Source: an uncultured Gammaproteobacteria bacterium | GTDB lineage: Bacteria > Patescibacteriota > Patescibacteriia > SG8-24 | Length of the DNA stretch: 64,000 nt | Assembly (NCBI GenBank): GCA_964626205.1 | Contig: CAZVED010000002.1 | Coordinates: 23,708 to 87,707, forward strand | Direction of reading: 5' to 3' | Part shown: in pieces, positions 402-22,700 of the stretch | Layout of the letters: the number at the start of each line of letters is the position of its first letter | Numbering within the stretch: the first letter of the stretch is position 1 | Notes under the pieces: model-generated | Seen by the model: the letters and a program-made list of their open reading frames with translations, nothing else | Told to the model about the DNA's origin: nothing | Databases searched by the model: none | Position numbers and translations under genes: made by a program

Positions 402-402
402 T

Positions 403-1911: not shown

Positions 1912-1940
1912 GCTTGTACATACATCCCGCGAGGGGTATC

Positions 1941-3260
1941 ATGAACGTGTTCGAAACGGACACGTTTTTGTTTATGCTCGACATCAAATACATCAGAGAA
2001 AACTCGGACAAGGTACGCGAAGCCTGCAAGAACAAGAACGTCACAGCCGACGTCGACGCCATCCTGAAGATGGATGCCGAACGCCGTGAGCTTTCCGTTC
2101 AGGTAGAAGACCTCAATCGCCAGCGCAACGAGGCCGCGAAGGCCAAGGATATCGAGAAGGGGAAGGCGCTCAAAGCGACCGCATCCGAAGTGGAGGCGAA
2201 GCTCGCCGAACTCGACGCCGCGCTCACCCCAATGCTCCTCACGCTCCCCAACATCCCGAGTGACGATACGCCAGTAGGTCCCGACGAATCCGGCAATATC
2301 GTCATCCGCAAGGTCGGCGAGCCAACGCAGTTTTCGTTCCCCGTGCGCGATCACGCCGACATCGGCAAGATGTTCAATCTCATCGACAACGAGCGCGGCG
2401 CGGATGTCGCGGGTGCGCGCTTCACCTACCTCAAGGGCGACCTCGTGTTGCTACAGTACGCGCTCGTGCATTACGTGTTCGGCCTCCTCACCAACCGCGA
2501 GGCTTTGGCCGCGCTCATCGAAAAGGCCGGCCTTTCCGTCGCTGCGACGCCATTTGTGCCGGTCGTACCGCCGCTCATGATCCGCCCGGAAGTGTTCCAA
2601 CGCATGGCCCGTCTCGAACCGCGCGATGAGCGTTACCACATCCCGAGTGACGACCTCTATCTCATCGGTAGTGCAGAGCACACGCTCGGGCCATTGCACA
2701 TGGACCAGACGCTCAAGGAAGCCGAACTCCCGTTGCGCTACGTGGCGTTCACCGCCGCGTTCCGCCGCGAGGCAGGAAGCTACGGCAAGGACACCAAGGG
2801 TATTCTCCGTCTCCACCAGTTCGACAAGATCGAGATGGAATCCTTCTCGCTCTCCGAAACCTCCCAGCAGGAGCAGGACTTCTTTGTCGCCATTCAAGAG
2901 CACATCCTCCAGGCGCTCGGCGTGCCGTACCAGGTCATGCAGGTCTGCACCGGCGACATGGGTGGCCCTGATGCCCGCCAGATCGACATCGAGTGCTGGA
3001 TGCCGGGGCAGCAGAAATACCGCGAGACACACACCTCCGACCTCATGACGGACTATCAGGCCCGCCGCCTCAACACGCGCGTGAAGCGCGCGACGGGAAG
3101 CGAGTTCGTGCACACCAACGATGCCACGGCACTCGCCATCGGCCGCATCCTCATCGCCATCATGGAGAACTTCCAACAAGAGGACGGCTCCGTCCGCGTG
3201 CCGGAAGTGCTGGTGCCGTACATGGCCGGCCGCGCGGTCATCGGACCGCCACACGCATAA
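1941..3260 (+). CDS. serS: Seryl-tRNA synthetase
   Basis: N-terminal coiled coil (MLDIKYIREN...). Class II core is present (RFTYLKGD, FRREAGSYGKDTKGILRLHQFDK, GRILIAIMENF). The RBS-like GAGGGG sits before the ATG at 1941, and there is an alternative ATG at 1974. Confidence 0.88.
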   Translation: MNVFETDTFLFMLDIKYIRENSDKVREACKNKNVTADVDAILKMDAERRELSVQVEDLNRQRNEAAKAKDIEKGKALKATASEVEAKLAELDAALTPMLLTLPNIPSDDTPVGPDESGNIVIRKVGEPTQFSFPVRDHADIGKMFNLIDNERGADVAGARFTYLKGDLVLLQYALVHYVFGLLTNREALAALIEKAGLSVAATPFVPVVPPLMIRPEVFQRMARLEPRDERYHIPSDDLYLIGSAEHTLGPLHMDQTLKEAELPLRYVAFTAAFRREAGSYGKDTKGILRLHQFDKIEMESFSLSETSQQEQDFFVAIQEHILQALGVPYQVMQVCTGDMGGPDARQIDIECWMPGQQKYRETHTSDLMTDYQARRLNTRVKRATGSEFVHTNDATALAIGRILIAIMENFQQEDGSVRVPEVLVPYMAGRAVIGPPHA

Positions 3261-9419: not shown

Positions 9420-9995
9420 TCACATCGCGATGACCATCGGGTTGCCGGGGATGTTGCGGACCAAGACAGTCCACATGTTTGGGCGCCCGGGGAGCTGGCT
9501 CACCGGGACCGCGCGCACGAACGACATCGCGAGTCGACTGAACATCTGCGCGGATGCCGCATCGCCAGCCATCGAGAAGCCAGCGTAGTAGAAGAGCACC
9601 TTCGCGGCTGAGCGACGCGCTGCAGCGAACGGATCTTGGAGCGTATCGAGGAGCGCGACCGGGACATCCGACTGGAACGCCGACTGGAGCGCATTGTACC
9701 GGTCGGCACCCAACGCCATGAGCAGCTTGAACCCGTACCGCCGATCGAGGGTGTCCGCAAGGTTCTCCTGCTTCTCGCCCAAGCGACGCCCGAACACCTC
9801 GTGCTCATCCAAAGCCTCCTCGACGCTCACGCACATCGTCTGGATACGCTGGGCGCTGAGGATGGCCGTGAGCGCCTGCTCGACCTCTTCGATGTCCACC
9901 TCCGTGATCTCCTCGAGCGTAGCGTCACGCATCACCGAAAGGATTGGCGTCATCGTTTTCACGATTTGTCGCCGGATGAACTCACCGTATACCAT
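9420..9995 (-). CDS. Hypothetical protein (191 aa, soluble, no recognised motif)
   Basis: Clean ORF that ends 3 nt after the bidirectional terminator. No signal peptide. Confidence 0.5.
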   Translation of the reverse strand: MVYGEFIRRQIVKTMTPILSVMRDATLEEITEVDIEEVEQALTAILSAQRIQTMCVSVEEALDEHEVFGRRLGEKQENLADTLDRRYGFKLLMALGADRYNALQSAFQSDVPVALLDTLQDPFAAARRSAAKVLFYYAGFSMAGDAASAQMFSRLAMSFVRAVPVSQLPGRPNMWTVLVRNIPGNPMVIAM

Positions 9996-10087
9996 GTCCT
10001 GCCTCCTGGAAAAAAGACCTCGTCATTTCTGACCGCTCAACATAGCAGAAAAACGGCACCCTGTCAACCCTCTGCGACCAGGGCAGC

Positions 10088-10115
10088 AAAAACCCCGCTG
10101 TTTTCATCAGCGGGG
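10088..10115 (-). terminator. Intrinsic terminator of the 10120-10509 gene
   Basis: CCCCGCTG-atgaaaa-CAGCGGGG followed by TTTTTGC on the minus strand. Confidence 0.55.
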
Positions 10116-10119
10116 TCGT

Positions 10120-10509
10120 TCAAAGTCGGAGCGAACGTGCGAGCTCCTGCGGGTCCACGACACTGCGTGCAGCCGAGGGGATCGAGAAGTTATCGATAAG
10201 GAGCACGTATGCCGATCCGGTGTCCGTGAGAACGAACCCGATGACATCGATGCGTACCGGCGCAAGGAGACGCAACAGGCCGGTCTCATGGAACGGCATC
10301 TCGTGCGGATCCCTGCCACGCTCCGGTACCCGGAGTGGACGATCACGCGTCACGACCTCAAGGTACGGCGTCGGTGCAAGACGGCTTGGCATCACAAGGG
10401 AAGCGGCGACACGGCGCTCCATGGCGGCGACGCGGTCGTCGGCCGTTGCCTGGGAGGCTGCGGAAGCGACGATGAACGCCGTTGCCACGAGAACGAAGCG
10501 TCGCGACAT
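10120..10509 (-). CDS. Small secreted protein (signal peptide)
   Basis: Starts MSRRFVLVATAFIVASAASQATA, with a predicted signal peptide and cleavage near A-x-A. Confidence 0.5.
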   Translation of the reverse strand: MSRRFVLVATAFIVASAASQATADDRVAAMERRVAASLVMPSRLAPTPYLEVVTRDRPLRVPERGRDPHEMPFHETGLLRLLAPVRIDVIGFVLTDTGSAYVLLIDNFSIPSAARSVVDPQELARSLRL

Positions 10510-10593
10510 GACATCCTCCTTCGGAGCGACAGGGCGACCCTAGCATCCGTATACCTAAAAAACAACCCGCCTCGTCGGAGGCGGGTAGCGCAT

Positions 10594-11193
10594 TCATTCT
10601 TGCGCGGTCGTGACCGTGTAGTCGAGCGAGGCATTCATCGCGTCGATGTCGGGAAGCGTTGCTTCATGCGCCGCGAGCGGCCACATGGCCTGCACGATGA
10701 GCGCGATGGGGAGGTTCGGCTTCCGGAGGATGTACGTTTTTCCACGCACCTCGGAACCGTAGGCTTCGAAAAAGAACGACGCGTTCATTCCGTCTGCCGA
10801 GACCTGCATCTCTGAGGTTTCGATGCCGACATCAGCAGCCTCCATCAACACCTTTTCGGTGAGCGCGCGCGTGTCCATCGACGAAGGGACGGGGACGGCT
10901 TGGATGAGGTACGCGCTGCGCAACGCGGCATGACGAAGCTTGGCGACCACGCGCGAGGATTGCTCATCGGCGGTCAGCTCTTGGGGAATCCAGAGTTGCG
11001 ACGCGCGGTCAAGCCCGAACTCGAGATTGAACGTCGGAGCTGTAGGAGCTTCTGGCGGCGAAGGCTCCGGTGTCGGCGAAGTCGCGACGGGCGGAGACTC
11101 CGGTGGCGCGACCGGCGTCACGGATGACGGAGGCGGCTTGGAGGCGCATGCGAACAAGACGAACGAAAGGGCGAGAAGTGCGATACGGTGCAT
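10594..11193 (-). CDS. Lipoprotein, paralog family member 1
   Basis: Start chosen at MHRIALLALSFVLFAC (lipobox LFAC) because AAGGAG precedes it. A Pro-rich linker (PPESPPVATSPTPEPSPPEAPTAPT) is followed by a C-terminal domain ending ...IVQAMWPLAAHEATL. Confidence 0.6.
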   Translation of the reverse strand: MHRIALLALSFVLFACASKPPPSSVTPVAPPESPPVATSPTPEPSPPEAPTAPTFNLEFGLDRASQLWIPQELTADEQSSRVVAKLRHAALRSAYLIQAVPVPSSMDTRALTEKVLMEAADVGIETSEMQVSADGMNASFFFEAYGSEVRGKTYILRKPNLPIALIVQAMWPLAAHEATLPDIDAMNASLDYTVTTAQE

Positions 11194-11302
11194 TGAGGAC
11201 TCCTTCAGTGCAGGAAAACGGCACCGAAGGAGCTTACCGGGAGAGTACCGGGAACGCAAGATGGGCATAAAAAAGCTCCCCGGAGGGGGAGCAGAACACG
11301 GT

Positions 11303-11839
11303 TCAGGGAACCACGCGGAGATAGGTCGCGATACCGTCGAGCTCGAGACCCATGGTATCCTCGGCATCGTTCAGAAGGTCCCAGCTTCCGGTGACGACGA
11401 GCATCCATTCCGGGTGATCGCGGTCATGGAAGACCATGACCTGACCAGCCATGGAGCGACCATATAAGAAGATGAAGAGCCCCCAACGGTCGCCGTGCGG
11501 ATCCTTGGCATAGCCGCCGACCCGTGCGCCGGAACGGTCGCGAGCGCGCATCTCTTCCGCAGCGATGTCGGCTGCCGTGCGACCATCCGCACGACGAAGG
11601 CTCACGAGGACGACGGCCTGTGTCACGCGGTGGCGCAGGATGAGCGCCACGGAGCGGTCAGTCGTTGCGGCGTCCTGCTCCCACAAGTCGCTGGGCAGCT
11701 CGAAGGTGACCGTCGGCCTCGACGGAAGTGCCGATGGCAAGGGTGCCGCCTGCACAGGAGGAACCGTTGCACAGGCGACGATGCCGTATGACGACAGAAC
11801 GAACATAAGGATGGAAAGGAGTGGTCGTCGGTGTGGCAT
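11303..11839 (-). CDS. Lipoprotein, paralog family member 2
   Basis: Starts MPHRRPLLSILMFVLSSYGIVAC (lipobox IVAC). The C-terminus ends ...MLVVTGSWDLLNDAEDT. A terminator lies at 11265-11290. Confidence 0.6.
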   Translation of the reverse strand: MPHRRPLLSILMFVLSSYGIVACATVPPVQAAPLPSALPSRPTVTFELPSDLWEQDAATTDRSVALILRHRVTQAVVLVSLRRADGRTAADIAAEEMRARDRSGARVGGYAKDPHGDRWGLFIFLYGRSMAGQVMVFHDRDHPEWMLVVTGSWDLLNDAEDTMGLELDGIATYLRVVP

Positions 11840-11928
11840 GGAAACCCTTTCGAAAAAGACCGTCCGCAAAAACCTAGCAGAAAGTTACTGGATTGAAAAG
11901 ACCCCCGACCTACGTCGGGGATCATGTA

Positions 11929-12552
11929 TCACAGCGGCGGAAGACGAATGACGTTGGGATCCTCCTCGCGGAACCAATCCTCAAAGTCCGGCTCTGGCGG
12001 AGGTGACCCTTCGATGTAAATCGCGGAGACGACATCTTGGAACTCGGAGAGCATCGTGGCGGTGGCCTCGGCAGGCCAGCGGCCGATGATAACCGCGAAA
12101 TACGAGGAATCGGGAAGCTGGCGCACGATGACCGCTCCGCCGTAAATGGTACCGTCATCGGTCGTCTCGATGGTCCGGAACCCCGCGAAAGCCATGCCTT
12201 CGTGGACGCCTTTTTCCATAGGAGACGTCGCCATGTCCTCGCGAGCATCCATGGCTTCCGCAAGACCGGCAGCGATCACTTCGATACTGGACTCCGCAGG
12301 AGCGATGTCAGCGAACGTGAGGGCCGGCGTCACGTACGCATGGCGTAGGACGACATCGACCATCTCATCGTCGGACGGCTCGTGCAGCCAGAGCGGAAGA
12401 TCTGCGACCGCGAGGCGTGGCGGCTCCGGTACTGCGGATTCCGTCTCGACCGTAGCGGATGGCGACGGCGTCGTCGGTGGCGCATGCCCGGCGGAAGCGC
12501 AAGAAGCGATGATGGCGAGGAACGGGAGGATGAACAGGGTCGGCATCCGCAT
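11929..12552 (-). CDS. Lipoprotein, paralog family member 3
   Basis: Starts MRMPTLFILPFLAIIASC (lipobox IASC) with AAAGGAG 7 nt upstream. The C-terminus ends ...FAVIIGRWPAEATATML. Confidence 0.6.
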   Translation of the reverse strand: MRMPTLFILPFLAIIASCASAGHAPPTTPSPSATVETESAVPEPPRLAVADLPLWLHEPSDDEMVDVVLRHAYVTPALTFADIAPAESSIEVIAAGLAEAMDAREDMATSPMEKGVHEGMAFAGFRTIETTDDGTIYGGAVIVRQLPDSSYFAVIIGRWPAEATATMLSEFQDVVSAIYIEGSPPPEPDFEDWFREEDPNVIRLPPL

Positions 12553-12638
12553 GGCGATGCTCCTTTCGTAGCGAGGAAAGAACACCAGAAGAGGCTAGCA
12601 CGGATAGAAAAAAGAGGGTACTCGACCCTCTTGTATCG

Positions 12639-13277
12639 TCATTCCGATCTGCGAATCGTGATACCGCGTAGCACGGCAAGGAATGCCGCCGCGCACGCTT
12701 CGTCATCGGCCTCCGGCCAGACGGCGAAGATCTCGATCTTCGCGCCGGTCGCCGCATCCACGGCAGCGAAGGTCATACCAGTCCCTGCAACACCATCGAC
12801 GACGCCGCCGAACCGGAACCCGATCCATGGGCGCCCGACGGTCGTGAACGTCTCAATAGGGGAGACGTGGACACCATCGATCCGCTCGAACCGATCACGC
12901 GTCCTCCCGACGATTTCCGTCGGTGGGACGTCCGTCGTGACATCCATGACGGCGACACGGAGGATCATGTCCGATCCTGCACGGCTGAACACGTGTATAT
13001 CCATGCCATCTCTTTGCGCCGTCATCACTTCGGTCCACGCGTCCGCGGCAGCGCCGAAACCGATCTCCCAGCGAGGGACCTCGACGGACACGTCGTCGCT
13101 GCCGGCATCCTCATCGTTCGTTACGCCTGGCGCGACAGTCGCACGAGGTGGAGCGACGAGCGATTGCGCGTCCTGCTGCCGCCGAGCGACATCCTGCAGG
13201 ATATGCGTGGAGAACCACCAGCCGCACACCCCGACAGGGATCGCGACAATTATGGCGATGAAAAAGAGCTTCTTCAT
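12639..13277 (-). CDS. Membrane-anchored or lipo-protein, paralog family member 4
   Basis: Starts MKKLFFIAIIVAIPVGVCGWW with GGAGGTG upstream. The C-terminus contains ...EIFAVWPEADDEACAAAFL. Confidence 0.55.
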   Translation of the reverse strand: MKKLFFIAIIVAIPVGVCGWWFSTHILQDVARRQQDAQSLVAPPRATVAPGVTNDEDAGSDDVSVEVPRWEIGFGAAADAWTEVMTAQRDGMDIHVFSRAGSDMILRVAVMDVTTDVPPTEIVGRTRDRFERIDGVHVSPIETFTTVGRPWIGFRFGGVVDGVAGTGMTFAAVDAATGAKIEIFAVWPEADDEACAAAFLAVLRGITIRRSE

Positions 13278-13338
13278 GGAGCACCTCCGCATGACAACCT
13301 TAACAAAAACCCTCCCCTTGGCAAGGGGAGGGAAGCGA

Positions 13339-13890
13339 TCACCGCATGCGCGTGTTCAGGATGATTGCGTCGACACGAGGCAACAGGTCGCGCATGTTGC
13401 CGGGCGGCCACTCCGCGAGGAACAATAGGATCGTGTCCGGACGTTCATAGCTCTCGCGCGCGACGAGCGTACCTTCCTCGTCGTCGCCGTCCGACGTGAC
13501 GCCCGAGAAGGTCACCGACGCGAAGGTGTCACCACCGTCGTAGACCGGTGTATGCGTTGGACGGAACCCTTGATGGATCATGGAGAACCAGTACGCAACA
13601 GCGACCGAAGCGACGTCGAGGCCACCCTCACGCGGAACGATCATGACCGTGATGGTGGCACCCGTCTCCGCATGGTGCATGAGAGCGGCGACACCGCTCT
13701 CCGGCCGTTCCGCAGCACGCGCAGTCCATCCTTCAGGGAGGTAGGGGCGGACCGGGAGGCTATCGAGTGCGCTCGGTGACTCCGGCGATGCCTGCGTCGG
13801 TGAGACGTCGGGTGCCGGGACAGCGGGGGTTGGCGCGACATGTGCGCAAGCGACGAGGACGAAGAACGGCAGTAGGGCGAGCTGTCGCAT
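13339..13890 (-). CDS. Lipoprotein, paralog family member 5
   Basis: Starts MRQLALLPFFVLVAC (lipobox LVAC) with AAGGAG upstream. The C-terminus contains ...ILLFLAEWPPGNMRDLLPRVDAI. Confidence 0.6.
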   Translation of the reverse strand: MRQLALLPFFVLVACAHVAPTPAVPAPDVSPTQASPESPSALDSLPVRPYLPEGWTARAAERPESGVAALMHHAETGATITVMIVPREGGLDVASVAVAYWFSMIHQGFRPTHTPVYDGGDTFASVTFSGVTSDGDDEEGTLVARESYERPDTILLFLAEWPPGNMRDLLPRVDAIILNTRMR

Positions 13891-13969
13891 CAGGGACTCC
13901 TTGCAAAAAGGGCGGTTGACGCGATTCACCGTACGAAAAAAGCCGCCCTTACGCAAGGGCGGCTGTACA

Positions 13970-14572
13970 CTACCGATATTCGATACGGACTGTGCCGAGA
14001 ACGGCCTCGAAGTGCGGTCGCGCTTCCTCGTCGAGCGATGGATGCCACTCTCCGCGGACCGTCATGACGTACGGCGTCTCCGCATCAGTCAACCGACCGA
14101 CGAAGACCGTTCCGTGGACCGGACGTGTCGATCGGCATGCGGTACCGTCGTCCATGCAGTCGGTGCGATCACCGACATACTCGAACCGTGCCCATGAGCC
14201 GTAAGGGTCGTACCGCAGCGGGGACACCGTCCATCCCGGGCCGGCATACGCCATGCGGATCGTCCCTGCGGCGATCTTCGGCGGCGAGACGCCTTCCGCC
14301 GAGCGGACGGAAATCTCGATGACGGCGAAAGTGTCGGACCGGGCGACAAGCCGAGCAGTCATGGGATCGTCCGTCGCCTGCGCCGTGAACATGCCGCTCG
14401 GATCGGTCGCGACGACGGTCGGAATCGACGCACGTGACGTCGTGGCAACCTCCGAGGGAGCAGGGTCGAGATGACCCTTCGGCGGAAGATCGGCTTCCAG
14501 CATGGGTGGGGGTAACGGCGTCGTGGCGCACGCCATAAGGACGAGGGAAAGGAGCAACGATAGCTGACGCAT
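13970..14572 (-). CDS. Lipoprotein (lipobox LMAC), Cys-containing C-terminal domain
   Basis: Starts MRQLSLLLSLVLMAC. The protein is 200 aa and has its own terminator at 13936-13960. Confidence 0.6.
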   Translation of the reverse strand: MRQLSLLLSLVLMACATTPLPPPMLEADLPPKGHLDPAPSEVATTSRASIPTVVATDPSGMFTAQATDDPMTARLVARSDTFAVIEISVRSAEGVSPPKIAAGTIRMAYAGPGWTVSPLRYDPYGSWARFEYVGDRTDCMDDGTACRSTRPVHGTVFVGRLTDAETPYVMTVRGEWHPSLDEEARPHFEAVLGTVRIEYR

Positions 14573-14705
14573 GAGAACCTCCTGTCATCAGGACAAAAGA
14601 ACTCTATACGCGTGCCACGAAACGTCAATCACGGCTTGACCCACGCCCTCCAGAGGGCTACCCTGAGACCGTACACACCGCTCCTTTTGAAGGAAGGACT
14701 GCTCC

Positions 14706-15281
14706 ATGAAAACCGTACTCTTGAGCATCGCGATGGTCGTCGCGCTCGCGACATCCTACGGTCTCGGCTACTACCACCGTGGCAGCTCCGGCCCGCCAAA
14801 CGCTAGCGAGCTCCGCATCAGCATCGACGGCGCAGAGGACGAGCTCACGCTCGCCCCGCTTGCAAAAGGGGAGACGCTCTCCGTCGGCGCCATGGAAGTC
14901 GCGGTCCGTAACGAAACCGCTCCGGACGCCAATGCGCAGTTCCCACATGCCTACGGCGACATCTGTCCGCTCAAGGAGCGCGACCCAGTGCGCGTCGCGG
15001 CACGCTCCGACGATGCGGTGCTCCTCGAGGTCACGGAACGCTCCCCGGACGGACTCTTCGATTCCGGAGACCGTATCGTACGGCACGACCTCGGCGACGG
15101 CGTCACGCGGACCGTCTTCTACTGCCCAGTCGGCACACTGTTCCTGCTCGACCGCCGCCACGCGGACATCGAACGCGTACGACACCTCTCCACGACGGCG
15201 TCCTATCGCCAGCAACGACGCGTCAACGAAGGGGAGCGCACGCTCATCCGCGGTATGCTCCGCGAGAACGGAGGAAGGTAG
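14706..15281 (+). CDS. Secreted or membrane-anchored hypothetical protein
   Basis: Starts MKTVLLSIAMVVALATSYG. A TTGACC-N17-TACCCT promoter candidate lies at 14634-14662. Confidence 0.5.
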   Translation: MKTVLLSIAMVVALATSYGLGYYHRGSSGPPNASELRISIDGAEDELTLAPLAKGETLSVGAMEVAVRNETAPDANAQFPHAYGDICPLKERDPVRVAARSDDAVLLEVTERSPDGLFDSGDRIVRHDLGDGVTRTVFYCPVGTLFLLDRRHADIERVRHLSTTASYRQQRRVNEGERTLIRGMLRENGGR

Positions 15282-15282
15282 C

Positions 15283-15660
15283 ATGATGAACCGTATCCTC
15301 ATCGCCCTGACGACCGTTGTCGTCAGCGTCGCCGCCATCCTCTTCATCGACCGCGCCATGGGCTACGCCTTCTCCGTGGGAGTGACCCTGCCGATGATCA
15401 TCTACCACTACGCCACGCGTTCGGCGTTCGCAATCATCATCGTGCATCTCACCCGGAACAAGACCAAGCTCTGGCATGCTCTCCTCTTCGCCTTCCTCTA
15501 CAGCTTCGTGACAAGCATTCCTAAGACGCTCATGGGATTCCCTCCGGACGGACTTCCGGACGGAGCCTTCCTCCACGACCTTACCTTCGTCCTCCTGATC
15601 ATGGTCGTCTACGCGCGATTGAATCCGCACGTAGAACCGCCGACAGATCAGCCAACGTGA
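15283..15660 (+). CDS. Small integral membrane protein (about 4 TM, 125 aa)
   Basis: Starts MMNRILIALTTVVVSVAAILF with GGAGGAAGG upstream, 1 nt after the previous stop. It is the true 3' part of track ORF 14779-15660. Confidence 0.55.
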   Translation: MMNRILIALTTVVVSVAAILFIDRAMGYAFSVGVTLPMIIYHYATRSAFAIIIVHLTRNKTKLWHALLFAFLYSFVTSIPKTLMGFPPDGLPDGAFLHDLTFVLLIMVVYARLNPHVEPPTDQPT

Positions 15661-15667
15661 CCGCATG

Positions 15668-15695
15668 CCTCTCCCTGAACGGGAGAGGCTTTTTC
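15668..15695 (+). terminator. Intrinsic terminator
   Basis: CCTCTCCC-tgaac-GGGAGAGG followed by CTTTTTC. Confidence 0.65.
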
Positions 15696-15698
15696 ATT

Positions 15699-15748
15699 GT
15701 CACGTTACCCATAGGAGACCGTTTCGTAGTAGAGTATGGGTAGTGACA
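15699..15748. promoter_or_regulatory. Inverted repeat (candidate operator or leader structure) in front of the ECF sigma gene
   Basis: TGTCACGTTACCCATA ... TATGGGTAGTGACA. The 14-16 nt arms are separated by 20 nt and the element ends 10 nt before the ATG at 15759. Confidence 0.4.
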
Positions 15749-15758
15749 CTCCCGACCA

Positions 15759-16331
15759 ATGACCGCCGAAGAGCGACAACTTGCGGAGCGCAGCAGGGCA
15801 GGAGACCGCGAGGCCTTCGCCGGCCTTTACGATGCCTACGCGCAAAAAATCTACCGCTACCTCTATTACCGCATCCAGAACCGCCACACTGCCGAAGATC
15901 TTACGAGCACCGTGTTCCTGAAAGCACTGAATGGTATCGGTAGTTTCGACCCAGAGAAGGGAAGTGTCTCCGCCTGGTTCTACACTATCGCCAGAAACGC
16001 GCTCACCGACCACTTCCGGACGCAAAAGGCGACCGTCGACCTAGAAGACGTCTGGGATGCGCTCGTGGACGGCACGGACCTTGTCCGCGATGCCGATACC
16101 GCCGAACGCCTCAAAGACGTGGACAAGCACCTCATGACGCTCACTGCCGCTCAGCGCGATGTCGTCATCATGCGCCTCTGGGACGGGCTTTCCTACGCCG
16201 AGATCGCAGAAGCGACCGGTAAGAGCGAAGCCGCCTGCAAGATGACGTTCTCTCGTGGAATAACGACGCTTCGCTCGGTCATGCCACTCACCGCCTTCCT
16301 CCTGTTCCTCATTACACGCCCCTATGCATGA
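15759..16331 (+). CDS. ECF-type RNA polymerase sigma factor (sigma-70 family, group 4)
   Basis: Region 2 (FAGLYDAYAQKIYRYLYYRIQNRHTAEDLTSTVFLKAL) and region 4 HTH (RDVVIMRLWDGLSYAEIAEATGKSEAACKMTFSRGITTLR) are present. Confidence 0.85.
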   Translation: MTAEERQLAERSRAGDREAFAGLYDAYAQKIYRYLYYRIQNRHTAEDLTSTVFLKALNGIGSFDPEKGSVSAWFYTIARNALTDHFRTQKATVDLEDVWDALVDGTDLVRDADTAERLKDVDKHLMTLTAAQRDVVIMRLWDGLSYAEIAEATGKSEAACKMTFSRGITTLRSVMPLTAFLLFLITRPYA

Positions 16332-17910
16332 ACGAACAAAAAACCTGCTCATCGAGCTTTACGCGCTCGACCCCTCGCTGAAGGAGCATGAACCTGCCCT
16401 CGTCGCGGTCCTCGAACGCATGACCGCTGCGAAACCCGATGTTCGCATCGACCAAGCCTTCCTTGCAGAACTCCGAGAAACCTTGCTCGCGGTACCAGCA
16501 ACCACTCCTCCTCGCTATCACAACATTATCACTAACCTTTTCGACACTATGTCCAAAACACCTTTCATTCTCGGTGGCCTCGCCATGACCGCCGTCCTCG
16601 TCGCCGTCGTTGCGACGCTTCCGGGACAGGCCCCTTCCGGCACACCGACCGGTTCACAGCTTGCCATGCTCGACGGCATCGTCGACACGGCACCAGGTGC
16701 ATTCGGAAACATCGGTGCGCTCGGCCTACAGGGCGTCGAAGCTCCGTCCGTTGAGTCAGTATCTACGGACACCTCTGCGCCCGCCGCAGAACCGATCGCC
16801 GTCCTCGGCACACCAGCAGCCATCTCCGCACGTCCGCAATCCGGCGGCGGGGGAGGGCTCGGCATGGGAAGCGACGCCAAGATGAGCATCCTCCCATGGT
16901 ACCCGTCTCCCGCGTACGACATCGTCTACGAAGGAGCCGAGCCGATCGAGATCGCCGAGCAGTCGGTCTACCGCCGGAGCACGGACCAGCAGACGCTTAC
17001 AGCATTCGCCGCAGCGGTCACCGGACGTCAGAACGGTCTCATCGACCTCTCCCGTTTCCGCGACCTTCGCATCGAGCGCATCTCGCTCTTCGAGGACCGT
17101 GCAGGCGGGTACCAAACGGAGCTCAACCTCTTCGACGGCTCCCTCTACATGAACCTCGACTGGCGCCACCAGCAATATGACCCGGCAATGGACCGACAGA
17201 TTCCTCTGTCCGAACTGCCGTCGGACACGACGTTCATCGACGCAGCAAACGCTTTCATGGACCGCTTCGGCATCGACCGTGCGGTCTACGGGGAACCGGT
17301 CGTCGACACCAGCTGGCAGCGCTACGTCATCATGGCCGATAGCGCAGAAGCATCCTACGCACCTTCCATGGTGAGCGTGGTCTACCCGCTCCTCGTCGAT
17401 GACATGCAGGTCACGGAGTTCGGTGGAGAAATCGCCGGACCGCGCGTCCACATCCGCGTCCAGGACCTCACGGTGATGAACCTCGGCAATCTCACGACGC
17501 GCCGCTTCGAGCGGTCCGCATACGCCCTCGAACTCGACGTCGTGCGTCTCGTCGCCTTCGCGGAAAAGGGCGGCATCCGCGGCTCCATCCATCAGCCGAT
17601 GAGTTACGACGACCAGGGGAATCCGGTCACACCGACGGAGCCCATGGAGGCCCTGCGCCTCGGGGAGCCTGAGCAGGTGCTCATGAAGATGTATCACTCA
17701 ATCGACAACGTCTCGGTGGAGCTCTATCTCCCGGCCCTCCGCTTCCCGATCCTTAACGTCCCGCAAGGCCCCGATTACTACGGCCCGCGCGATGTCATGG
17801 TGCCGCTCGTGAAGGACATCCTCGATGAAGCCGAGCGCATGATGGACCAACAGCCCGTCCCTATGCCGCTCGACCTCCCGGCCGTCAGTGAACCGGCTGT
17901 CCTCCGGTAG
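16324..17910 (+). CDS. Putative anti-sigma factor or ECF-associated membrane protein
   Basis: Start overlaps the sigma stop (ATGCATGA). A short cytoplasmic N-terminus is followed by one TM (ILGGLAMTAVLVAVVATL) and a large external domain. Confidence 0.5.
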   Translation: MHERTKNLLIELYALDPSLKEHEPALVAVLERMTAAKPDVRIDQAFLAELRETLLAVPATTPPRYHNIITNLFDTMSKTPFILGGLAMTAVLVAVVATLPGQAPSGTPTGSQLAMLDGIVDTAPGAFGNIGALGLQGVEAPSVESVSTDTSAPAAEPIAVLGTPAAISARPQSGGGGGLGMGSDAKMSILPWYPSPAYDIVYEGAEPIEIAEQSVYRRSTDQQTLTAFAAAVTGRQNGLIDLSRFRDLRIERISLFEDRAGGYQTELNLFDGSLYMNLDWRHQQYDPAMDRQIPLSELPSDTTFIDAANAFMDRFGIDRAVYGEPVVDTSWQRYVIMADSAEASYAPSMVSVVYPLLVDDMQVTEFGGEIAGPRVHIRVQDLTVMNLGNLTTRRFERSAYALELDVVRLVAFAEKGGIRGSIHQPMSYDDQGNPVTPTEPMEALRLGEPEQVLMKMYHSIDNVSVELYLPALRFPILNVPQGPDYYGPRDVMVPLVKDILDEAERMMDQQPVPMPLDLPAVSEPAVLR

Positions 17911-17943
17911 ACTTCTGGAAGCGGAATAGACCGTCCTACCATC

Positions 17944-18034
17944 CTGTCATTGCGAGTGGGTCGTACTCGACCCCGAAGCAATCCCGAACATGACGGGATT
18001 GCTTCAGGCCTAAAGGCCCTCGCAATGACAAAGG
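17944..18034. repeat. Composite palindromic element: two inverted copies of a ~36-nt unit also found at 43068
   Basis: Outer arms are TGTCATTGCGAG / CTCGCAATGACA. The inner hairpins are GGGTCG-tac-tCGACCC, GAAGCAATCCCG-aacatga-CGGGATTGCTTC and GGCC-taaa-GGCC. Confidence 0.7.
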
Positions 18035-18121
18035 TGGCGGGACGGTTTTTCGCTAGTTGACACTATCGGGCCCGGAGGCAAAGATAGGGGGACGCACCTT
18101 CTAGCGTCCTCAGAAAGGATC

Positions 18122-18757
18122 GTGCCCGTGGACGAAAATCCCAAGACTCCGCCATCCGCCTCCTACGTCCCCATGGTCGTCTTCGGTGATCGTGGTCACG
18201 AACGGGCAGCAGACATCTTCTCGATGCTGCTCGCCAAGCGCATCATCTTCATCCAGAGCGAGATCGAGCCATACATGGCCGCCGCGGTCGTGGGACAGCT
18301 CATCTATCTCGACTTCGAGGATCCCGACAAGGAAATCTGCATGTACATCCAGAGCCCGGGCGGCCAGATCACTTCCGGCCTCGCGATTGTGGACACCATG
18401 CGGTTCATCAAATCGCCGATTCGCACAGTCTGCGTCGGACAATGCGCCTCCATGGCCTCCTGGATCCTCGCGGCAGGCACCAAAGGACGGCGCACGATTC
18501 TCCCGAACGCGGAAGTCATGATCCACCAGCCTATCGGCGGCGTACGTGGTCAGGCAACGGACATCGAGATCGCGAACACCCACATGCAAGCGACCAAGCG
18601 ACGTATGAACGAGCTCTTCGCAGCCTTCACCGGCAAGAGCATCGAGGAGGTCCGGAGGGACACCGACCGCGACAACTACCTTACCGCCGAACAGGCGAAG
18701 GAGTACGGCATCGTCGACCAGATCATCCCCTGGAGTGTCCCGATCCTCGGCAGCTAA
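18122..18757 (+). CDS. clpP: ATP-dependent Clp protease proteolytic subunit
   Basis: GTG start with GAAAGGA upstream. Catalytic Ser (GQCASMASW), His (MIHQP) and Asp are in ClpP positions. Confidence 0.9.
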   Translation: MPVDENPKTPPSASYVPMVVFGDRGHERAADIFSMLLAKRIIFIQSEIEPYMAAAVVGQLIYLDFEDPDKEICMYIQSPGGQITSGLAIVDTMRFIKSPIRTVCVGQCASMASWILAAGTKGRRTILPNAEVMIHQPIGGVRGQATDIEIANTHMQATKRRMNELFAAFTGKSIEEVRRDTDRDNYLTAEQAKEYGIVDQIIPWSVPILGS

Positions 18758-18835
18758 ATGCGGACGCTTCTGCATACCAACGGCTTCCTCGTCATGAGGG
18801 GCCGTTTTTTGTTCGCGGTGCTATACTGACCGCAT

Positions 18836-20158
18836 ATGCAGCAAAAGAAGCGCCTCATCATCGTCGCGGTCGCCGCAACTGTGACTGTTGCAGCCATTCT
18901 CGCTGCCATCCTCATCGTCATGCGTCCCGTCCGGCAAGCGGACATCGTCCCGCCGCTCCTTACCTCGAACGAGGTTGCAGAACTCGGGATCCGCGAAGAA
19001 TCCTTCACGCTACCGCCTCCTGAGCCGATGCCGACAGGGGAGTATGGTCCGCCCGCTCCGGAAGTCGTGCGCCAACCCTACCTCCCGCCGCCATCCATGA
19101 ACCTCACCAGCTCGCGTCTTGGCACACAACGCGTTCCTGGGAGCGAAGACGTCGGTGATGTCTATCAGATTCTTTTCCATGCGCGTGCATCCGCGTTGTT
19201 CATGGCAGTCATCGAGCCCACGGGGCTGCGCGCCATCTGGAAGCTGGATCAGCACGGGGCTTTCGAACGTGTCTTCGCGGTGAGCGAAGCGCAAGGGGAG
19301 ATACGCCTCTTCATGACGAGCGGAGGAGTGATGTACGTACAGGCGCATGGCGTCAAAGGCATGCTCCGTACCGACGATGCCTTCGCGACCATCCACCAGG
19401 TCGACGGCGACTTTGGGATGTTCTGGCAGATGACCGACAACGGTAGGGGAACGGTCTGGGGGACGCAGCATGAGTTCAACTCCGCCGTTCTGTTCCGCAG
19501 CACGGATAACGGCCTTACCTGGGAACCGTGGGTAGACTTTCATCAGCTCCTTCCGCAGGAAGCGCGGCGCTATGCGCAAGGTGACGAACGATTCCGGCTC
19601 CGCCACCTGCACGGCATCATCTTCAACGACAAGACGCAGGAACTCGTCGTAGGAACGGGCGATGTCGCACGCTACGCGCTCCGGACGCGCGACGAAGGAT
19701 TCACCTGGGAGCAGATCTGGGACGAAGGCTTCACCGCGTGGGCGCCGGTCCCCGGAGGAAGTCGCTACGTCCTCGGTCCGGATAAACTTGCAGGTCCAGG
19801 AATCGTCCTCTATGACGCCTGGGCAGACACGGTCCGCACGGTCTGGACGCCGTGGAAGCACGGCTATGCTGGGTACACCTACTCCATCATCAGCGCGGAA
19901 GGCATCCTCTACGCCGCGTTCCACACCGAAGCGAACGAGGTCGAGGAGCGGACGCCGCTCTTTGGTATCGTCGTCTCACCGGACGCTGAAACCTGGTATC
20001 CGTTCCTCCAATGGGGTCCGCTCGGCAACCATGCGCGCACGGACATTTGGCTCGCTCCGTCGCCCAGTGCAATCTACGCAAGCGTCAACGGCGCGCTCTA
20101 CGCCTTCAGTCCACTCGACCAGGAGTGGTTCACGAACAAGACTCCGTTCATGGAATGA
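18836..20158 (+). CDS. Membrane-anchored BNR/Asp-box repeat protein (sialidase-like beta-propeller)
   Basis: N-terminal TM (LIIVAVAATVTVAAILAAILIV). Asp-boxes are STDNGLTWEPW and RTRDEGFTWEQIW. The -10 TATACT at 18823-18828 is only 7 nt from the ATG, so the mRNA may be leaderless. Confidence 0.55.
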   Translation: MQQKKRLIIVAVAATVTVAAILAAILIVMRPVRQADIVPPLLTSNEVAELGIREESFTLPPPEPMPTGEYGPPAPEVVRQPYLPPPSMNLTSSRLGTQRVPGSEDVGDVYQILFHARASALFMAVIEPTGLRAIWKLDQHGAFERVFAVSEAQGEIRLFMTSGGVMYVQAHGVKGMLRTDDAFATIHQVDGDFGMFWQMTDNGRGTVWGTQHEFNSAVLFRSTDNGLTWEPWVDFHQLLPQEARRYAQGDERFRLRHLHGIIFNDKTQELVVGTGDVARYALRTRDEGFTWEQIWDEGFTAWAPVPGGSRYVLGPDKLAGPGIVLYDAWADTVRTVWTPWKHGYAGYTYSIISAEGILYAAFHTEANEVEERTPLFGIVVSPDAETWYPFLQWGPLGNHARTDIWLAPSPSAIYASVNGALYAFSPLDQEWFTNKTPFME

Positions 20159-20191
20159 AAAACGGCTCCCTGAAAGGGGAGCCGTCGTCGT

Positions 20192-20845
20192 TTACTCGAA
20201 GGTCAGACTGTTCATGACCTGCAGCATCTCGCGACGCCGCATGTCTTGCCGGGCCTTTGGCCACTCGGCACGGATGACCACCGTGTACTCCTGCGGCTGT
20301 TGTGGTAGACGCATGACCGCGAAAAAGACCTGTCTGGTTCCGCGCTCCGTCACCAGCACGCTCGTGAACCACGCCTTCTCGTCGTTCGACGTCTTGGTAG
20401 GGTATGCGCGAGTCATCCTCGCTCCATCGGCCTTCTCTTTCTCGAAGATGGCGTGCAACAAGTCTGGAACCGATGCCACATCGCTCGAACGACGGATGTC
20501 GATGCGGATCTCCGCGTCGCGATGCCCGTTCGTAAACAGGACGTCCGTGTTCGCGGCGAAGGAGACGTTCTTGAGGAACGACCCGCTCCAATCGGAGGAC
20601 GTCTCGTACCGCAGACGTACCGGTCGTGGCGCGGCGGGGTTGCCGTACGCGGTCGGGTTCCGGAAGACCTCGCGCTCCGTCATGAGCGGCGGGTCACGAA
20701 GCGGCTCGTCGCGCGTCACGGTACGGGTCACCACAGGAACCGTTCCTGCGGCCGCAAGCGGGTCCGTGGGCGAGTCCGCACTGGCTGGCAAAACTGCCGC
20801 CAGGATGGCAAAGACCGAAAGAACGCTGTTGGTTCTCATGCGCAT
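20192..20845 (-). CDS. Secreted protein, distant paralog of the lipoprotein family (AEWP motif)
   Basis: Start taken at MRMRTNSVLSVFAILAAVLPASA (signal peptide) with AAGGAGGAG upstream. The C-terminus ends ...VVIRAEWPKARQDMRRREMLQVMNSL. Confidence 0.55.
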   Translation of the reverse strand: MRMRTNSVLSVFAILAAVLPASADSPTDPLAAAGTVPVVTRTVTRDEPLRDPPLMTEREVFRNPTAYGNPAAPRPVRLRYETSSDWSGSFLKNVSFAANTDVLFTNGHRDAEIRIDIRRSSDVASVPDLLHAIFEKEKADGARMTRAYPTKTSNDEKAWFTSVLVTERGTRQVFFAVMRLPQQPQEYTVVIRAEWPKARQDMRRREMLQVMNSLTFE

Positions 20846-20934
20846 GAGTATCTCCTCCTTCGCAGCAGCGGGATGCCCTGCGAACATCTAGACCTACCAT
20901 GCCCGCCCATTCTTGGCAAGGATAAGGCTCAGGA

Positions 20935-20967
20935 TAAAAAAGGGGGCAGACCGAGTGTCTGCCCCCT
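20935..20967 (-). terminator. Intrinsic terminator of the 20978-21934 gene
   Basis: GGGGGCAGA-ccgagt-GTCTGCCCCC followed by TTTTTTATCC on the minus strand. Confidence 0.6.
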
Positions 20968-20977
20968 CACGAAAGGT

Positions 20978-21934
20978 TCAGTGATTCATCGACTCGTCGA
21001 CGACGATCGGGCCGTCCTCGCAGTGGACGGGGCCGTACTCGCCGTTATTGTACGCGTCGAGCATCGCGCCGAGCATCTTTGCGTTCGCGCTCGCGAGCGC
21101 GCCAGCGCCGCGATTCGACGTGCGGTAGGGAAGCTTGCCGTCCGCATCGGCGTTCGCGCTCATCCATGCCTGGGCGGCCGCAAGGTCGTCCATGAACGCG
21201 TCGGTACCGCCGGCCCCCGCAGCGACGTTGAGCATCGCAGCAATGAGCTGGTGGCCGAGAATGAGGCTCGCGTCGCCGCGTGTCGGGGTCTTCAGGATGA
21301 CCAACAGCTCCGCCTTCGTGTACGTACGGTTCCCGAGCGTCAACTCGTCGACCGGCCATGCCTCCGGATGGTTCTTCCAGAAGCCCTGCGTCAGCGTGCA
21401 ACCGTAGTCGGTCCCGGCATCCGGCTCCTCATCGCAGAGGAACGTGTATGCCACGAACTGGTACTGGCCGCCGACGCCCGTGAAGTGCAGGGACTGCGTC
21501 TGAACGTGCAGGAACTTCGCCATGATCTGCATCATGAGCGCATCACCGCACGCCGGCTCGCCGATCGCTTCGAACGGGATGACCACGGTCGAGGTCGTCG
21601 CGGTAGACGAAAGACCGAAGTTCTGGACGTACGGGCACTGCCACGGATCCGTAGACGTGACGGCACCGAAGGTCGCGCAGATCGACGTGTACACGATGAC
21701 GAATCCGGGAGATGCCGTGAACGTGACCGTCACTGCCGCATCGTCGGAAGACACCGTCGCCATGCCGGCCTGGACGGGGAAACCGTTCAGTGTCGACATG
21801 AGCGGATAGTCCGCCGCCGGGATGCTGAGCGTCTGCCGTTGCCCGGCGACCTCGTTCGGCTGCTCCGCCACGGCGCAAGCCCCGACCATGAGTGTCGCTG
21901 CGACCAGGAAACTCCATCGAACGATACGTGTCAT
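20978..21934 (-). CDS. Lipoprotein with conserved CTLTQGFWKNHPEAWP motif
   Basis: Starts MTRIVRWSFLVAATLMVGAC (lipobox VGAC), with RBS AAAAGGAGGA. The mature protein is Thr/Ser-rich and contains the GCTLTQGFWKNH motif and several Cys. Confidence 0.55.
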   Translation of the reverse strand: MTRIVRWSFLVAATLMVGACAVAEQPNEVAGQRQTLSIPAADYPLMSTLNGFPVQAGMATVSSDDAAVTVTFTASPGFVIVYTSICATFGAVTSTDPWQCPYVQNFGLSSTATTSTVVIPFEAIGEPACGDALMMQIMAKFLHVQTQSLHFTGVGGQYQFVAYTFLCDEEPDAGTDYGCTLTQGFWKNHPEAWPVDELTLGNRTYTKAELLVILKTPTRGDASLILGHQLIAAMLNVAAGAGGTDAFMDDLAAAQAWMSANADADGKLPYRTSNRGAGALASANAKMLGAMLDAYNNGEYGPVHCEDGPIVVDESMNH

Positions 21935-21959
21935 TGTGCGTCCTCCTTTTGGGTGGTTG

Positions 21960-22700
21960 TGAGACGCGGTCGCATGCTACAAGATTCCATGGATATGTCA
22001 AGGAGGTCGTAGCGCTATGCATCTTCGATGAAGCATTTTTTGGCTTTGTTAAGCTAAAAAATGCTTATTATCCTTAAAATTGGCTTAATCTAGCAAAAAA
22101 ACGACACTGGCGGTTATCGATAAATTTTGAACAAGCACGGCAAGAACATCTGCAAAAGATCTCTGACAAGTCTCAACAAGAGAGCTGGCTGCTCCATATC
22201 TCGCTTCGCCACGCCAGACACTTGCTGAACAAGCACGGCAAGAGAAAAGCATTTTTAGGGGGCCTCCCCCCGATCCCAGCCTTATTAAGTGTCGTCTAAG
22301 ATATATTGTGCGACACAGTAGAGACCACTCCTGGGCCGCTTCCCTCGCGCTCCTAGAGGTCAACGCCCCCGTACTGCTCTGGTGTATTTTCCCTGGGTGC
22401 TCTGGCCATGAAGTTCCATCCCTTGGCGCACACGCGACACAAGTCACTGGGACGAGACCCGTGCGCACATCATGGCGCTACCCCATCGTTGCCTTCTGCT
22501 GGATCGCCGGGCGCGCGGACTCAGTCCCCGACCATGGGATACTCAGTCGCACATGACATGGTTCCCCATCCTCCATTTTGGTCGTTTCTGAATGTGGACG
22601 AAAGTCCCTCGATGTGTCGTAAAATGTATATCCTGCGCCCTGCGTCCATTGACCAGCAATCCGCCTGCCGTATACTGACCGCACCGCCCTTTGCCATGGA
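21960..22700. other. AT-rich non-coding island with direct repeats
   Basis: No convincing ORF on either strand. GC drops sharply, visible for example at 22040-22140. TGAACAAGCACGGCAAGA occurs at 22128-22145 and 22226-22243. It ends in a TTGACC-N16-TATACT promoter (22657-22684) for the next gene. Confidence 0.5.

Follow-up and report, generated by a model that had tools for sequence, protein, structure and literature searches.

An old tandem array of membrane-tethered proteins with a predicted Mog1/PsbP-like fold beside a sigma factor operon

A run of minus-strand genes at 10120-14572 was analysed in a 64-kb stretch of the contig CAZVED010000002.1 (positions 23,708 to 87,707 of its forward strand; this whole stretch of 64,000 nucleotides is called the window). 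The run lies near an operon for an extracytoplasmic function (ECF) sigma factor. With moderate confidence, we interpret it as an old tandem expansion of previously unnamed small extracytoplasmic proteins, which have diversified as membrane-tethered binding or adaptor modules and are expressed from separate short units. The descriptive part of this interpretation is well supported; the functional part is put forward tentatively, by analogy with characterised proteins of the same fold.

Kinship, membrane anchors and fold of the copies

According to the list of open reading frames (ORFs), seven minus-strand genes follow one another in 10120-14572. They were named g6 to g0, g6 being the nearest to the sigma factor operon, while g7 denotes the gene at 20192-20845. 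Six of the seven are true paralogs (five lipoproteins and g4) and g0 is unrelated to them. The five lipoprotein genes are g6 (13970-14572; lipobox LMAC, motif GEWHP, a Pro-rich linker and a 151-amino-acid (aa) domain of predicted Mog1/PsbP fold), g5 (13339-13890; lipobox LVAC, a family domain ending in AEWPPGN, identical to the 183-aa database protein P0001), g3 (11929-12552; lipobox IASC, motif GRWPAEA and an extra C-terminal tail containing PPPEPDFEDWFRE), g2 (11303-11839; lipobox IVAC, motif GSWDLL) and g1 (10594-11193; lipobox LFAC, a long Pro-rich linker and the motif MWPLAAHEA). The sixth paralog, g4 (12639-13277), has the motif VWPEADDEA and the string VGVC in a probable N-terminal transmembrane helix. 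The last gene, g0 (10120-10509), codes for a secreted protein of 129 aa that has an ordinary signal peptide and lacks the motif; its place at the end of the array is conserved. Outside the array, g7 (minus strand) carries the motif AEWPKARQ and a signal of the signal-peptidase-I type, cleaved between PASA and DSP, and is followed by a terminator at 20186-20161.

A sequence-only reading of the same DNA had counted five lipoprotein paralogs in the array. The paralogous family which it described is real, the count had to be raised to six members, as g6 with its LMAC lipobox had been missed. All the hydrophobic-W-P motifs that it quoted were found, and so were the Pro/Ser/Thr-rich linkers (Ala is also abundant in them) and a Shine-Dalgarno sequence (GGAGG or AAGGAG, 6-9 nt from the ATG) ahead of every copy, the weakest being that of g2 (AAGGG). 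Its lipoboxes LFAC, IVAC, IASC and LVAC were retained and VGVC was not.

Proteins were regarded as lipoproteins when a positive n-region and a hydrophobic core were followed by a lipobox of the form [LVI][ASTVI][GAS]C, the Cys being residue +1. Such a signal is present in g1, g2, g3, g5 and g6 and absent from g4 and g7. In g4 the hydrophobic stretch runs on beyond the Cys (..VGVCGWWFSTHIL); among its orthologs in the related contigs described below, that of L001 reads LALCGGALAVL and that of L169 is without any Cys (MKMFIFGVIAVMVLGGGWLF). For these reasons the VGVC of g4 was rejected as a lipobox, and an N-terminal transmembrane helix is the most likely anchor of g4.

The kinship of the copies was tested on the C-terminal domains only, with the signal peptides and linkers removed. 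Smith-Waterman z-scores against 300 composition-preserving shuffles were 10.5 for g2-g6, 5.3 for g1-g5 and g3-g6, 4.7 for g4-g6 and g5-g6, and 4.4 for g6-g7. These pairs form a connected graph with g6 as its hub, and g0 is not connected to it. When a profile built from six domains was run against all six-frame ORFs of the GC-rich window that are 80 aa or longer (419 in number), the copy left out was in each case the top match outside the training set (E-values: g3 3.9e-12, g6 1.1e-9, g2 3.1e-9, g1 3.7e-6, g4 2.7e-5, g7 4.5e-4, g5 1.3e-3), with the next matches at E 0.2-1.5. The gene at 20192-20845, proposed earlier as a further secreted paralog, was confirmed as such by its left-out profile and becomes the seventh member by the corrected count. 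No additional copy was found among the 419 ORFs of the 64-kb window by the profile search. The possibility that g0 is a degenerate family member was also considered and was rejected, as it showed no similarity to the family either in the shuffle tests or with the left-out profiles.

The copies are thus a genuine homologous family whose likeness goes beyond composition, the point on which the sequence-only reading had staked its claim. The protein identity among the paralogs is 13-28%. If the genes were unrelated small lipoproteins resembling each other merely through signal peptides, Pro-rich linkers and the amino-acid bias of high-GC coding sequence, the weak full-length pairwise BLAST results (1e-3 to 1e-6 in a tiny database, several pairs giving no match) would be easily understood, and so would the seven-sequence alignment, in which P and W alone are invariant. 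However, the domains freed from signal peptide and linker still score far above their shuffled counterparts, every left-out copy ranked first among the 419 ORFs, the seven-sequence alignment by itself took AlphaFold to a predicted local distance difference test (pLDDT) value of 90, and the seven-copy profile pulls specific orthologs of each copy from 1.84 billion proteins. The probability of a merely compositional likeness is practically negligible.

The AlphaFold2 model of the g6 domain, computed from the seven-sequence alignment only, has a pLDDT of 90.2 and a predicted template modelling score (pTM) of 0.85, with the order b-b-b-b-a-b-b-b-b-a-b of strands (b) and helices (a). For g7, the most divergent copy, the values were 75.2 and 0.73, and the order was that of g6 except for one short strand. 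The order of elements in both models agrees with the Mog1/PsbP fold, which is defined by an N-terminal beta-hairpin, a central antiparallel sheet and two flanking helices. Foldseek comparison with the PDB gave a common set of matches for the two models (probability 1.00, template modelling (TM) score 0.5-0.71), comprising cyanobacterial and plant PsbP, CyanoP, Mog1, Jonesia 3lyd, MTC28 of M. tuberculosis, LpqN, Salmonella DcrB, EagT6, SciW and PA94. The top match was 2xb3 of the PsbP/CyanoP group (E 1e-5 to 4e-5, TM score up to 0.64); MTC28 reached TM scores of 0.58-0.71, LpqN E-values of 8e-4 to 1e-3, DcrB (6e8a) a TM score of 0.60 at E 3e-4, and EagT6, SciW and PA94 E-values of 2e-3 to 8e-3. 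The domain is accordingly modelled as a Mog1/PsbP-like alpha-beta-alpha sandwich of about 140 aa. In the g6 model the invariant Trp closes the last long strand (residues 117-127) and the next Pro opens the C-terminal helix (129-143), thus the hydrophobic-W-P motif is predicted to be a structural hinge or signature and not a catalytic site.

At the sequence level, none of the profiles PF10738 (Lpp-LpqN), PF08786 (DUF1795), PF01789 (PsbP) and PF04603 (Mog1) matched any of the eight window proteins (hmmscan, E<=1). None of 98 family members matches any Pfam family (hmmscan, E<=0.01), and NCBIfam gave nothing for g6, g2 and g7, the three copies scanned. A PDB sequence profile reaches LpqN and other lipoproteins through the signal peptide and lipobox only. 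The copies form an unnamed sequence family within a known fold superfamily. The earlier statement that no named domain could be recognised holds for the sequence; the fold itself is recognisable as Mog1/PsbP-like.

Conservation of the array and distribution of the family

Related arrays were compared in the contigs L001 (Logan, 6.8 kb) and L169 (JGI, 6.4 kb) and in L082 and L171, which come from one sample. In the window the sigma factor operon is followed, in divergent orientation, by g6, g5, g4, g3, g2, g1 and g0. In L001 the genes for the anti-sigma factor, the ECF sigma factor, a 124-aa membrane protein and a 191-aa protein are divergent from g6, g4, g3, g1 and g0, and in L169 the same four sigma-side genes are divergent from g4, g3, g1, X and g0. 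L082 and L171 together carry g6, g5, g4, g3 and, further on, g1, X and g0, beyond which lies an ortholog of the gene at 9420-9995 of the window. The order is constant across all these loci and the content varies; the arrays of L001 and L169 both lack g2 and g5.

Some relatives have an eighth family member, X, located between g1 and g0 (L169:5606-6193; L171:754-1344) and not present in the window. It codes for 195-196 aa with the lipobox LAAC or LSAC and with EYP replacing EWP, and it matched the window-only profile with E-values of 2.9e-9 and 2.5e-6. In L169 and L171 the genes X and g0 are separated by 6 nt or overlap by 4 nt. They form an operon there, and the window g0 looks as if it had inherited the terminator-promoter spacer of X. 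The orthologs of g0, found at the same position in L001, L169 and L171, are 50-72% identical to it.

In the related contigs the identity of the lipoprotein orthologs is 34-48% (g3 up to 73%). The flanking genes in L001 and L169 are at 82-83% for the sigma factor, 59-60% for the anti-sigma factor and 58% for the 191-aa protein. The duplications therefore predate these lineages and the family evolves faster than its neighbours; since every paralog has its own orthologs in conserved order, the copies are old and individually retained.

Directly past the array, 9420-9995 codes for a 191-aa cytoplasmic protein and is preceded by a sigma-70-like promoter, TTGACA-17-TATGTT with a TG, at 10039-10067. 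Because its N-terminus is conserved after g0 in L171, this gene marks the fixed far boundary of the array.

The profile of the seven copies was searched exhaustively against 1.84 billion representative proteins, the proteins matched being given P-numbers. It found 102 proteins at E<=1e-3 and 14 at E<=1e-10, six of the latter being the window genes. The closest foreign matches, from other metagenomes, are orthologs specific to single paralogs: P0008, P0013 and P0021 to g1 (35-48% identity), P0009 and P0016 to g2 (37-41%), P0020, P0040 and P0057 to g3 (37-42%), P0101 and P0104 to g4 (34-39%), P0018 to g5 (46%, with 45-46% in L082), P0012 and P0055 to g6 (34-41%, with 40-41% in L001 and L082), and P0010 and P0017 to g7 (47-48%). 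The distant relatives are about 160-220 aa long; a lipobox is present in at least 74 of 97 and the exact W-P near the C-terminus in 69 of 97.

A word-indexed homology search with g5 found only g5 itself, and with the alignment of 98 sequences it gave four proteins, its candidate list being dominated by words from the signal peptides. The family was present in none of 80 genome loci anchored on ClpP (ClpP identity at most 56%; Firmicutes and candidate phyla radiation (CPR)) and in none of 80 metagenome loci anchored on the ECF sigma factor (sigma identity at most 41%).

Three observations concern individual members. The g3 orthologs share an acidic/aromatic tail after the domain (..PP.P.PD.EDWF..; 11929-12010 in the window), which the window gene, L001, P0020, P0040 and P0057 have and the other paralogs lack; this tail may serve as a short motif for docking. 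The distant member P0029 (294 aa) has a C-terminal thioredoxin-like extension with WCGYC, the sole domain fusion seen in the family, and this fusion fits an extracytoplasmic helper role. A more distant high-GC contig (L164:20-2331) contains three adjacent family genes beside a GH5 glycoside hydrolase, and one protein encoded in it, P0011 (330 aa), carries two family domains in tandem.

The sequence-only reading had also suggested a phase- or host-adaptive repertoire. If the array were a variable surface repertoire, whose copies are switched or recombined for phase or antigenic variation or for rapid adaptation to a host, divergent paralogs exposed at the surface, arranged in tandem and each with its own expression signals, would be expected, as would the lower identity of the orthologs compared with the flanking genes and the differing array content among the relatives. 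Arrays of Borrelia, Mycoplasma and Bacteroides are alike in the tandem expansion of exported lipoproteins and in the divergence of the displayed domain; those families typically vary via repeats, promoter tracts, inversions or cassettes. Such switching features are not seen here. The array genes and spacers contain no tandem repeats or simple-sequence tracts, the promoters and 5' coding regions included (one weak match in 9900-21000 lies inside clpP), the DNA matches between the copies are chance-level ones of 14-31 nt, and no inverted repeats resembling invertible elements were found. The copies are anciently diverged, and their one-to-one orthologs in fixed gene order are the opposite of recombining cassettes. 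Because of the absence of repeats, a paralog identity too low for homologous recombination and the stable one-to-one orthologs, the usual switching mechanisms are ruled out as far as the sequence can tell, and we regard a variable repertoire as highly improbable.

Transcription signals and the sigma factor operon

Every family gene and g0 is followed by a GC-rich hairpin and a T-run, in agreement with the earlier description of a terminator of its own after each copy. The terminators after g6-g1 and g7 were taken from a scan, and that of g0, which the scan did not list, was read by eye. All those of the array are on the minus strand, and most are closely followed by a promoter-like element of the next gene. 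The terminator after g6 (13934-13964) has a 10-bp stem with 7 GC pairs, then TTTTTT. The tail of the terminator after g5 (13303-13332) overlaps the -10-like element of g4, TGTTAAGGT (13305-13297). After g4 (12605-12632) comes the element TGCTAGCCT of g3 at 12600-12592, after g3 (11893-11923) the element TGCTAGGTT of g2 at 11879-11871, after g2 (11268-11292) the element TTGCGT-N17-TAAGCT of g1 at 11259-11231, and after g1 (10558-10586) the element TGCTAGGGT of g0 at 10545-10537. The terminator after g0 (10088-10115) reads CCCCGCTG-ATGAAAA-CAGCGGGG-TTTTT. A promoter-like site of the sigma-70 type, TTGACG-16-TAGAGT, precedes g6 at 14601-14628 (minus strand) in the 133-bp divergent spacer.

In L001, L082, L169 and L171 terminators are found at matching positions with different stem sequences. 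Since they keep the position but not the stem sequence, termination after each gene has apparently been selected. The idea that the terminators are an exceptional device was dropped, as other units of the window also end in strong terminators and the density here reflects seven short units.

Several of the promoter-like elements are conserved as well. L001 has TTGACA-16-TAGAGT at the place of the g6 element, and the counterpart of the g1 element in L001 and L169 is TTGTC(G/C)-N17-TAGGAT. The extended -10-like form TGnTAnnnT stands upstream of g4, g3, g2 and g0, i.e. four correctly oriented sites in about 640 nt of spacers, against about 0.2 predicted by the frequency over the whole window, 43 sites in 128 kb (both strands). 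The g3 element TGCTA(G/C)nnT (TGCTAGCCT, TGCTACTCT or TGCTAGCGT) is conserved in four genomes, and so is TAAGGT of the g4 element (window, L001, L082 and L169). TGCTAnnnT also precedes unrelated window genes, for instance at 10047-10039, 18819-18827 and 62127-62119, and because unrelated genes carry the same form, it looks like the ordinary promoter type of the organism. Individual transcription of the copies is plausible from these signals.

On the other side of the divergent spacer, the immediate neighbour of the array is a plus-strand gene for a 191-aa exported or anchored protein (14706-15281), which occupies the same position in L001 and L169 and whose product had no Pfam or NCBIfam match. 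It is followed by a gene for a 125-aa multi-pass membrane protein (15283-15660, plus strand; orthologs 28-30% identical) and by a terminator at 15667-15689. The ECF (group IV) sigma factor gene lies at 15759-16331 (plus strand) and was recognised by Pfam (Sigma70_r2 2.8e-20, Sigma70_r4_2 9.3e-12, Sigma70_ECF 2.8e-7) and by NCBIfam (TIGR02937 sigma70-ECF, 94.7 bits against a cut-off of 42.9). Its best-scoring subfamily model is BldN-like, with 136 bits, below the cut-off of 206 bits. Upstream of it, CGTTAC-N16-CGTAGTA (15703-15731, plus strand), which L001 and L169 share with the window without any change in the spacing, is a candidate promoter of the ECF type, probably used by the sigma factor for its own, autoregulated transcription.

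The next gene (16324-17910, plus strand) overlaps the sigma gene by 8 nt and codes for a 528-aa protein that has a single transmembrane segment, close to residue 90, and a large domain on the outside; the proteins of L001 and L169 have the same length. No anti-sigma domain of the zf-HC2, RskA or RsdA types was recognised in it with Pfam and NCBIfam. From the 8-nt overlap, the single transmembrane helix and the conserved pairing in L001 and L169, we infer that it is a putative anti-sigma factor.

The sequence-only reading had placed the end of the array at a divergent region leading to the ECF pair and had proposed envelope-stress regulation. The ECF sigma factor is indeed nearby, and the two-gene unit 14706-15660 with its terminator intervenes. 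The array would be the regulon of the neighbouring pair if the anti-sigma factor sensed an envelope signal and the freed sigma factor transcribed the lipoprotein genes. The adjacency of operon, two-gene unit and array is kept in the window and in both related contigs that reach that side (L001 and L169), in spite of lipoproteins at 34-48% identity, and the best model of the sigma factor is the BldN family; in Streptomyces, BldN drives families of small secreted surface proteins. In the relatives, moreover, CGT(A/G)GTA in the X/g0 spacer faintly resembles the -10 part of the sigma motif.

However, no family gene of the window, L001, L169, L082 or L171 is preceded by the relaxed motif GT[TA]AC-N15-17-CGT[AC]; in L001 and L169 this motif occurs only upstream of the sigma gene, and the window has two distant sites in addition to that one. 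The sigma motif itself, with up to 3 mismatches allowed, has no correctly oriented site in the array. The family genes carry instead housekeeping-type elements conserved across genomes, a terminator and two genes stand between the array and the sigma operon, and the BldN score is far under its cut-off. Although the adjacency is real, direct control of the array by this sigma factor is not supported by the promoter sequences; the claim of ECF regulation could not be upheld, and we consider such a regulon rather unlikely.

Proposed function and genomic surroundings

Characterised bacterial proteins of the Mog1/PsbP fold are non-enzymatic partners of proteins or membrane complexes, and for this reason a binding or adaptor role is proposed for the family. 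Each protein would be tethered to the membrane by its N-terminus and carry, after a flexible Pro/Ser/Thr/Ala-rich spacer, a single domain of about 140 aa with the Mog1/PsbP fold. The tether is predicted to be a lipid anchor in five copies and a transmembrane helix in one, with a cleaved ordinary signal in g7. The domains may serve, without enzymatic activity, as binding or adaptor modules at the outer face of the cytoplasmic membrane, with the Pro-rich spacers holding them away from it, and each paralog is probably specialised on its own partner or ligand. The copies would be expressed as separate short units, presumably dependent on the housekeeping sigma factor, and copy-specific expression levels would be possible.

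Among the known proteins, LpqN interacts with MmpL3 and MmpL11 (PMC7458404), and DcrB is a membrane-anchored periplasmic Mog1p/PsbP protein whose family is described as tied to membrane-anchored complexes (PMC7716261). The DUF1795/Eag proteins are accessories of protein-protein interactions (PMC4524185; PMC3482391). Possible analogues are thus LpqN with the MmpL transporters, DcrB, the Eag chaperones, which hold transmembrane helices, and PsbP on photosystem II.

The LpqN/LpqT/Mtc28 proteins (PF10738) are similar to the family in being secreted or lipid-anchored outside the cytoplasmic membrane, with a Pro-rich N-terminal region and a single Mog1/PsbP domain, and they gave the best or near-best structural matches. 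They differ in that PF10738 matches none of the 98 family members, and the W-P signature and the conserved ECF sigma link are specific to the family described here. The LpqN-type paralogs of mycobacteria are dispersed and do not form a tandem array. DcrB and the DUF1795 proteins (PF08786; EagT6, EagR, SciW, PA0094) share the fold and act by contacts rather than catalysis, and DcrB is a lipoprotein tethered to the inner membrane. In contrast, no DUF1795 match was obtained here, their genes are single copies and not arrays, and the Eag proteins are cytoplasmic and encoded beside type VI secretion system (T6SS) effectors, none of which was found here. PsbP, CyanoP and PPL proteins (photosystem II, NDH) were the top Foldseek matches, and CyanoP is a lipoprotein carrying the PsbP fold. 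Unlike these, the family shows no PF01789 match and an identity of 6-13% to them, and there are no photosynthetic genes among the window genes scanned.

Several points weigh against our interpretation. The structural matches are moderate (TM score 0.5-0.7, about 10% identity) and were obtained with predicted models that were built from only seven sequences. The fold names no partner, and no transporter or complex gene consistently adjoins the array. The lipidation of g1, g2, g3, g5 and g6 is predicted from their lipoboxes, and no Lgt or LspA was seen among about 25 window ORFs scanned with Pfam, a scan not aimed at these enzymes. As for the separate units, the distance between the terminators and the next start codons is 61-109 nt, so that promoters must abut or overlap the terminator. 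No convincing promoter-like element was found in the upstream spacer of g5, which may depend on read-through from g6; co-transcription by read-through from the g6 promoter, with graded attenuation, could also account for the arrangement. Finally, our interpretation does not explain why the array and the sigma operon have stayed adjacent in three genomes.

The array might alternatively be a polyimmunity locus, in which extracytoplasmic immunity proteins each block a different secreted toxin acting on the wall or the membrane. Tandem, divergent paralogs of small exported proteins or lipoproteins are typical of immunity loci, and the proteins of the array diverge quickly. PsbP/MOG1 domains have been listed among the fusion partners in polyimmunity contexts (PMC3482391), and the models have weak structural matches to the T6SS immunity protein Tsi3 (TM score 0.33-0.45). 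These matches are, however, much weaker than those to PsbP, MTC28 and DcrB. The locus is chromosomal, syntenic and vertically inherited, and at the level of Pfam recognition no toxin, secretion-system or mobile-element gene adjoins the array in the window or in the related loci; the neighbours are an EamA transporter, the cytoplasmic protein, ClpP and the sigma operon. We find a polyimmunity locus very unlikely.

A broader scheme is also conceivable, in which the ECF sigma factor, the large orphan anti-sigma sensor, the two membrane proteins, six to eight tethered PsbP-fold adaptors in constant order and g0 make up one functional module, a conserved envelope island. The lipoproteins would each capture a different external ligand or partner, such as a host surface, a lipid or a cell-wall fragment, for a membrane machinery or for the anti-sigma sensor. 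We consider this scheme quite unlikely; if true, the island would represent a new kind of system in which lipoproteins assist surface sensing or uptake.

The 64-kb window is chromosomal and rich in housekeeping genes (FtsH, ClpP, ClpB, Alr and synthetase genes). The sigma operon apart, the genes identified within about 10 kb of the array code for FtsH, the EamA transporter, ClpP, a BNR-like protein and further exported proteins, and the related contigs have the same neighbours. Pfam recognised four aminoacyl-tRNA synthetase genes, namely a class II D/K/N-type, SerRS, GluRS and a short AlaRS of 618 aa (79-3260, 24593-26104, 51449-53305), and so many synthetase genes in 64 kb, at least five in all, suggest a small, gene-dense genome. 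The organism may be CPR-like and dependent on other cells. No rRNA, tRNA or other Rfam match was found in the window.

Three further regions of the window were noted. Upstream of clpP, a 210-nt leader (17911-18121) contains long nested inverted repeats, CATTGCGAG...CTCGCAATG enclosing GAAGCAATCCCG...CGGGATTGCTTC; it had no Rfam match at the gathering threshold and might function as a regulatory RNA or form an operator structure. An AT-rich spacer (21935-22100) in this genome of 61% GC, with a palindrome of 16-bp stem (22031-22066) and several promoter-like sites, lies upstream of a lipoprotein-like gene (20978-21934; lipobox MVGAC). At 58506-60671 a 721-aa protein with domains of TrwB/TraG-type type IV coupling proteins is encoded, then a 479-aa ORF, and this region may be a conjugation- or competence-like module.

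No new mechanism is opened by the array, as tethered PsbP/Mog1 proteins (LpqN, DcrB, CyanoP) were already known and arrays of paralogous lipoproteins are common. Its significance lies in giving a fold and a family to hypothetical lipoproteins that were unseen by the sequence libraries, about 100 clusters at 50% identity with the W-P signature, which is useful for annotation. In one uncultivated high-GC lineage this family has grown to at least eight anciently split members, whose order next to an ECF sigma operon is fixed, and these proteins are candidate envelope adaptors of that lineage.

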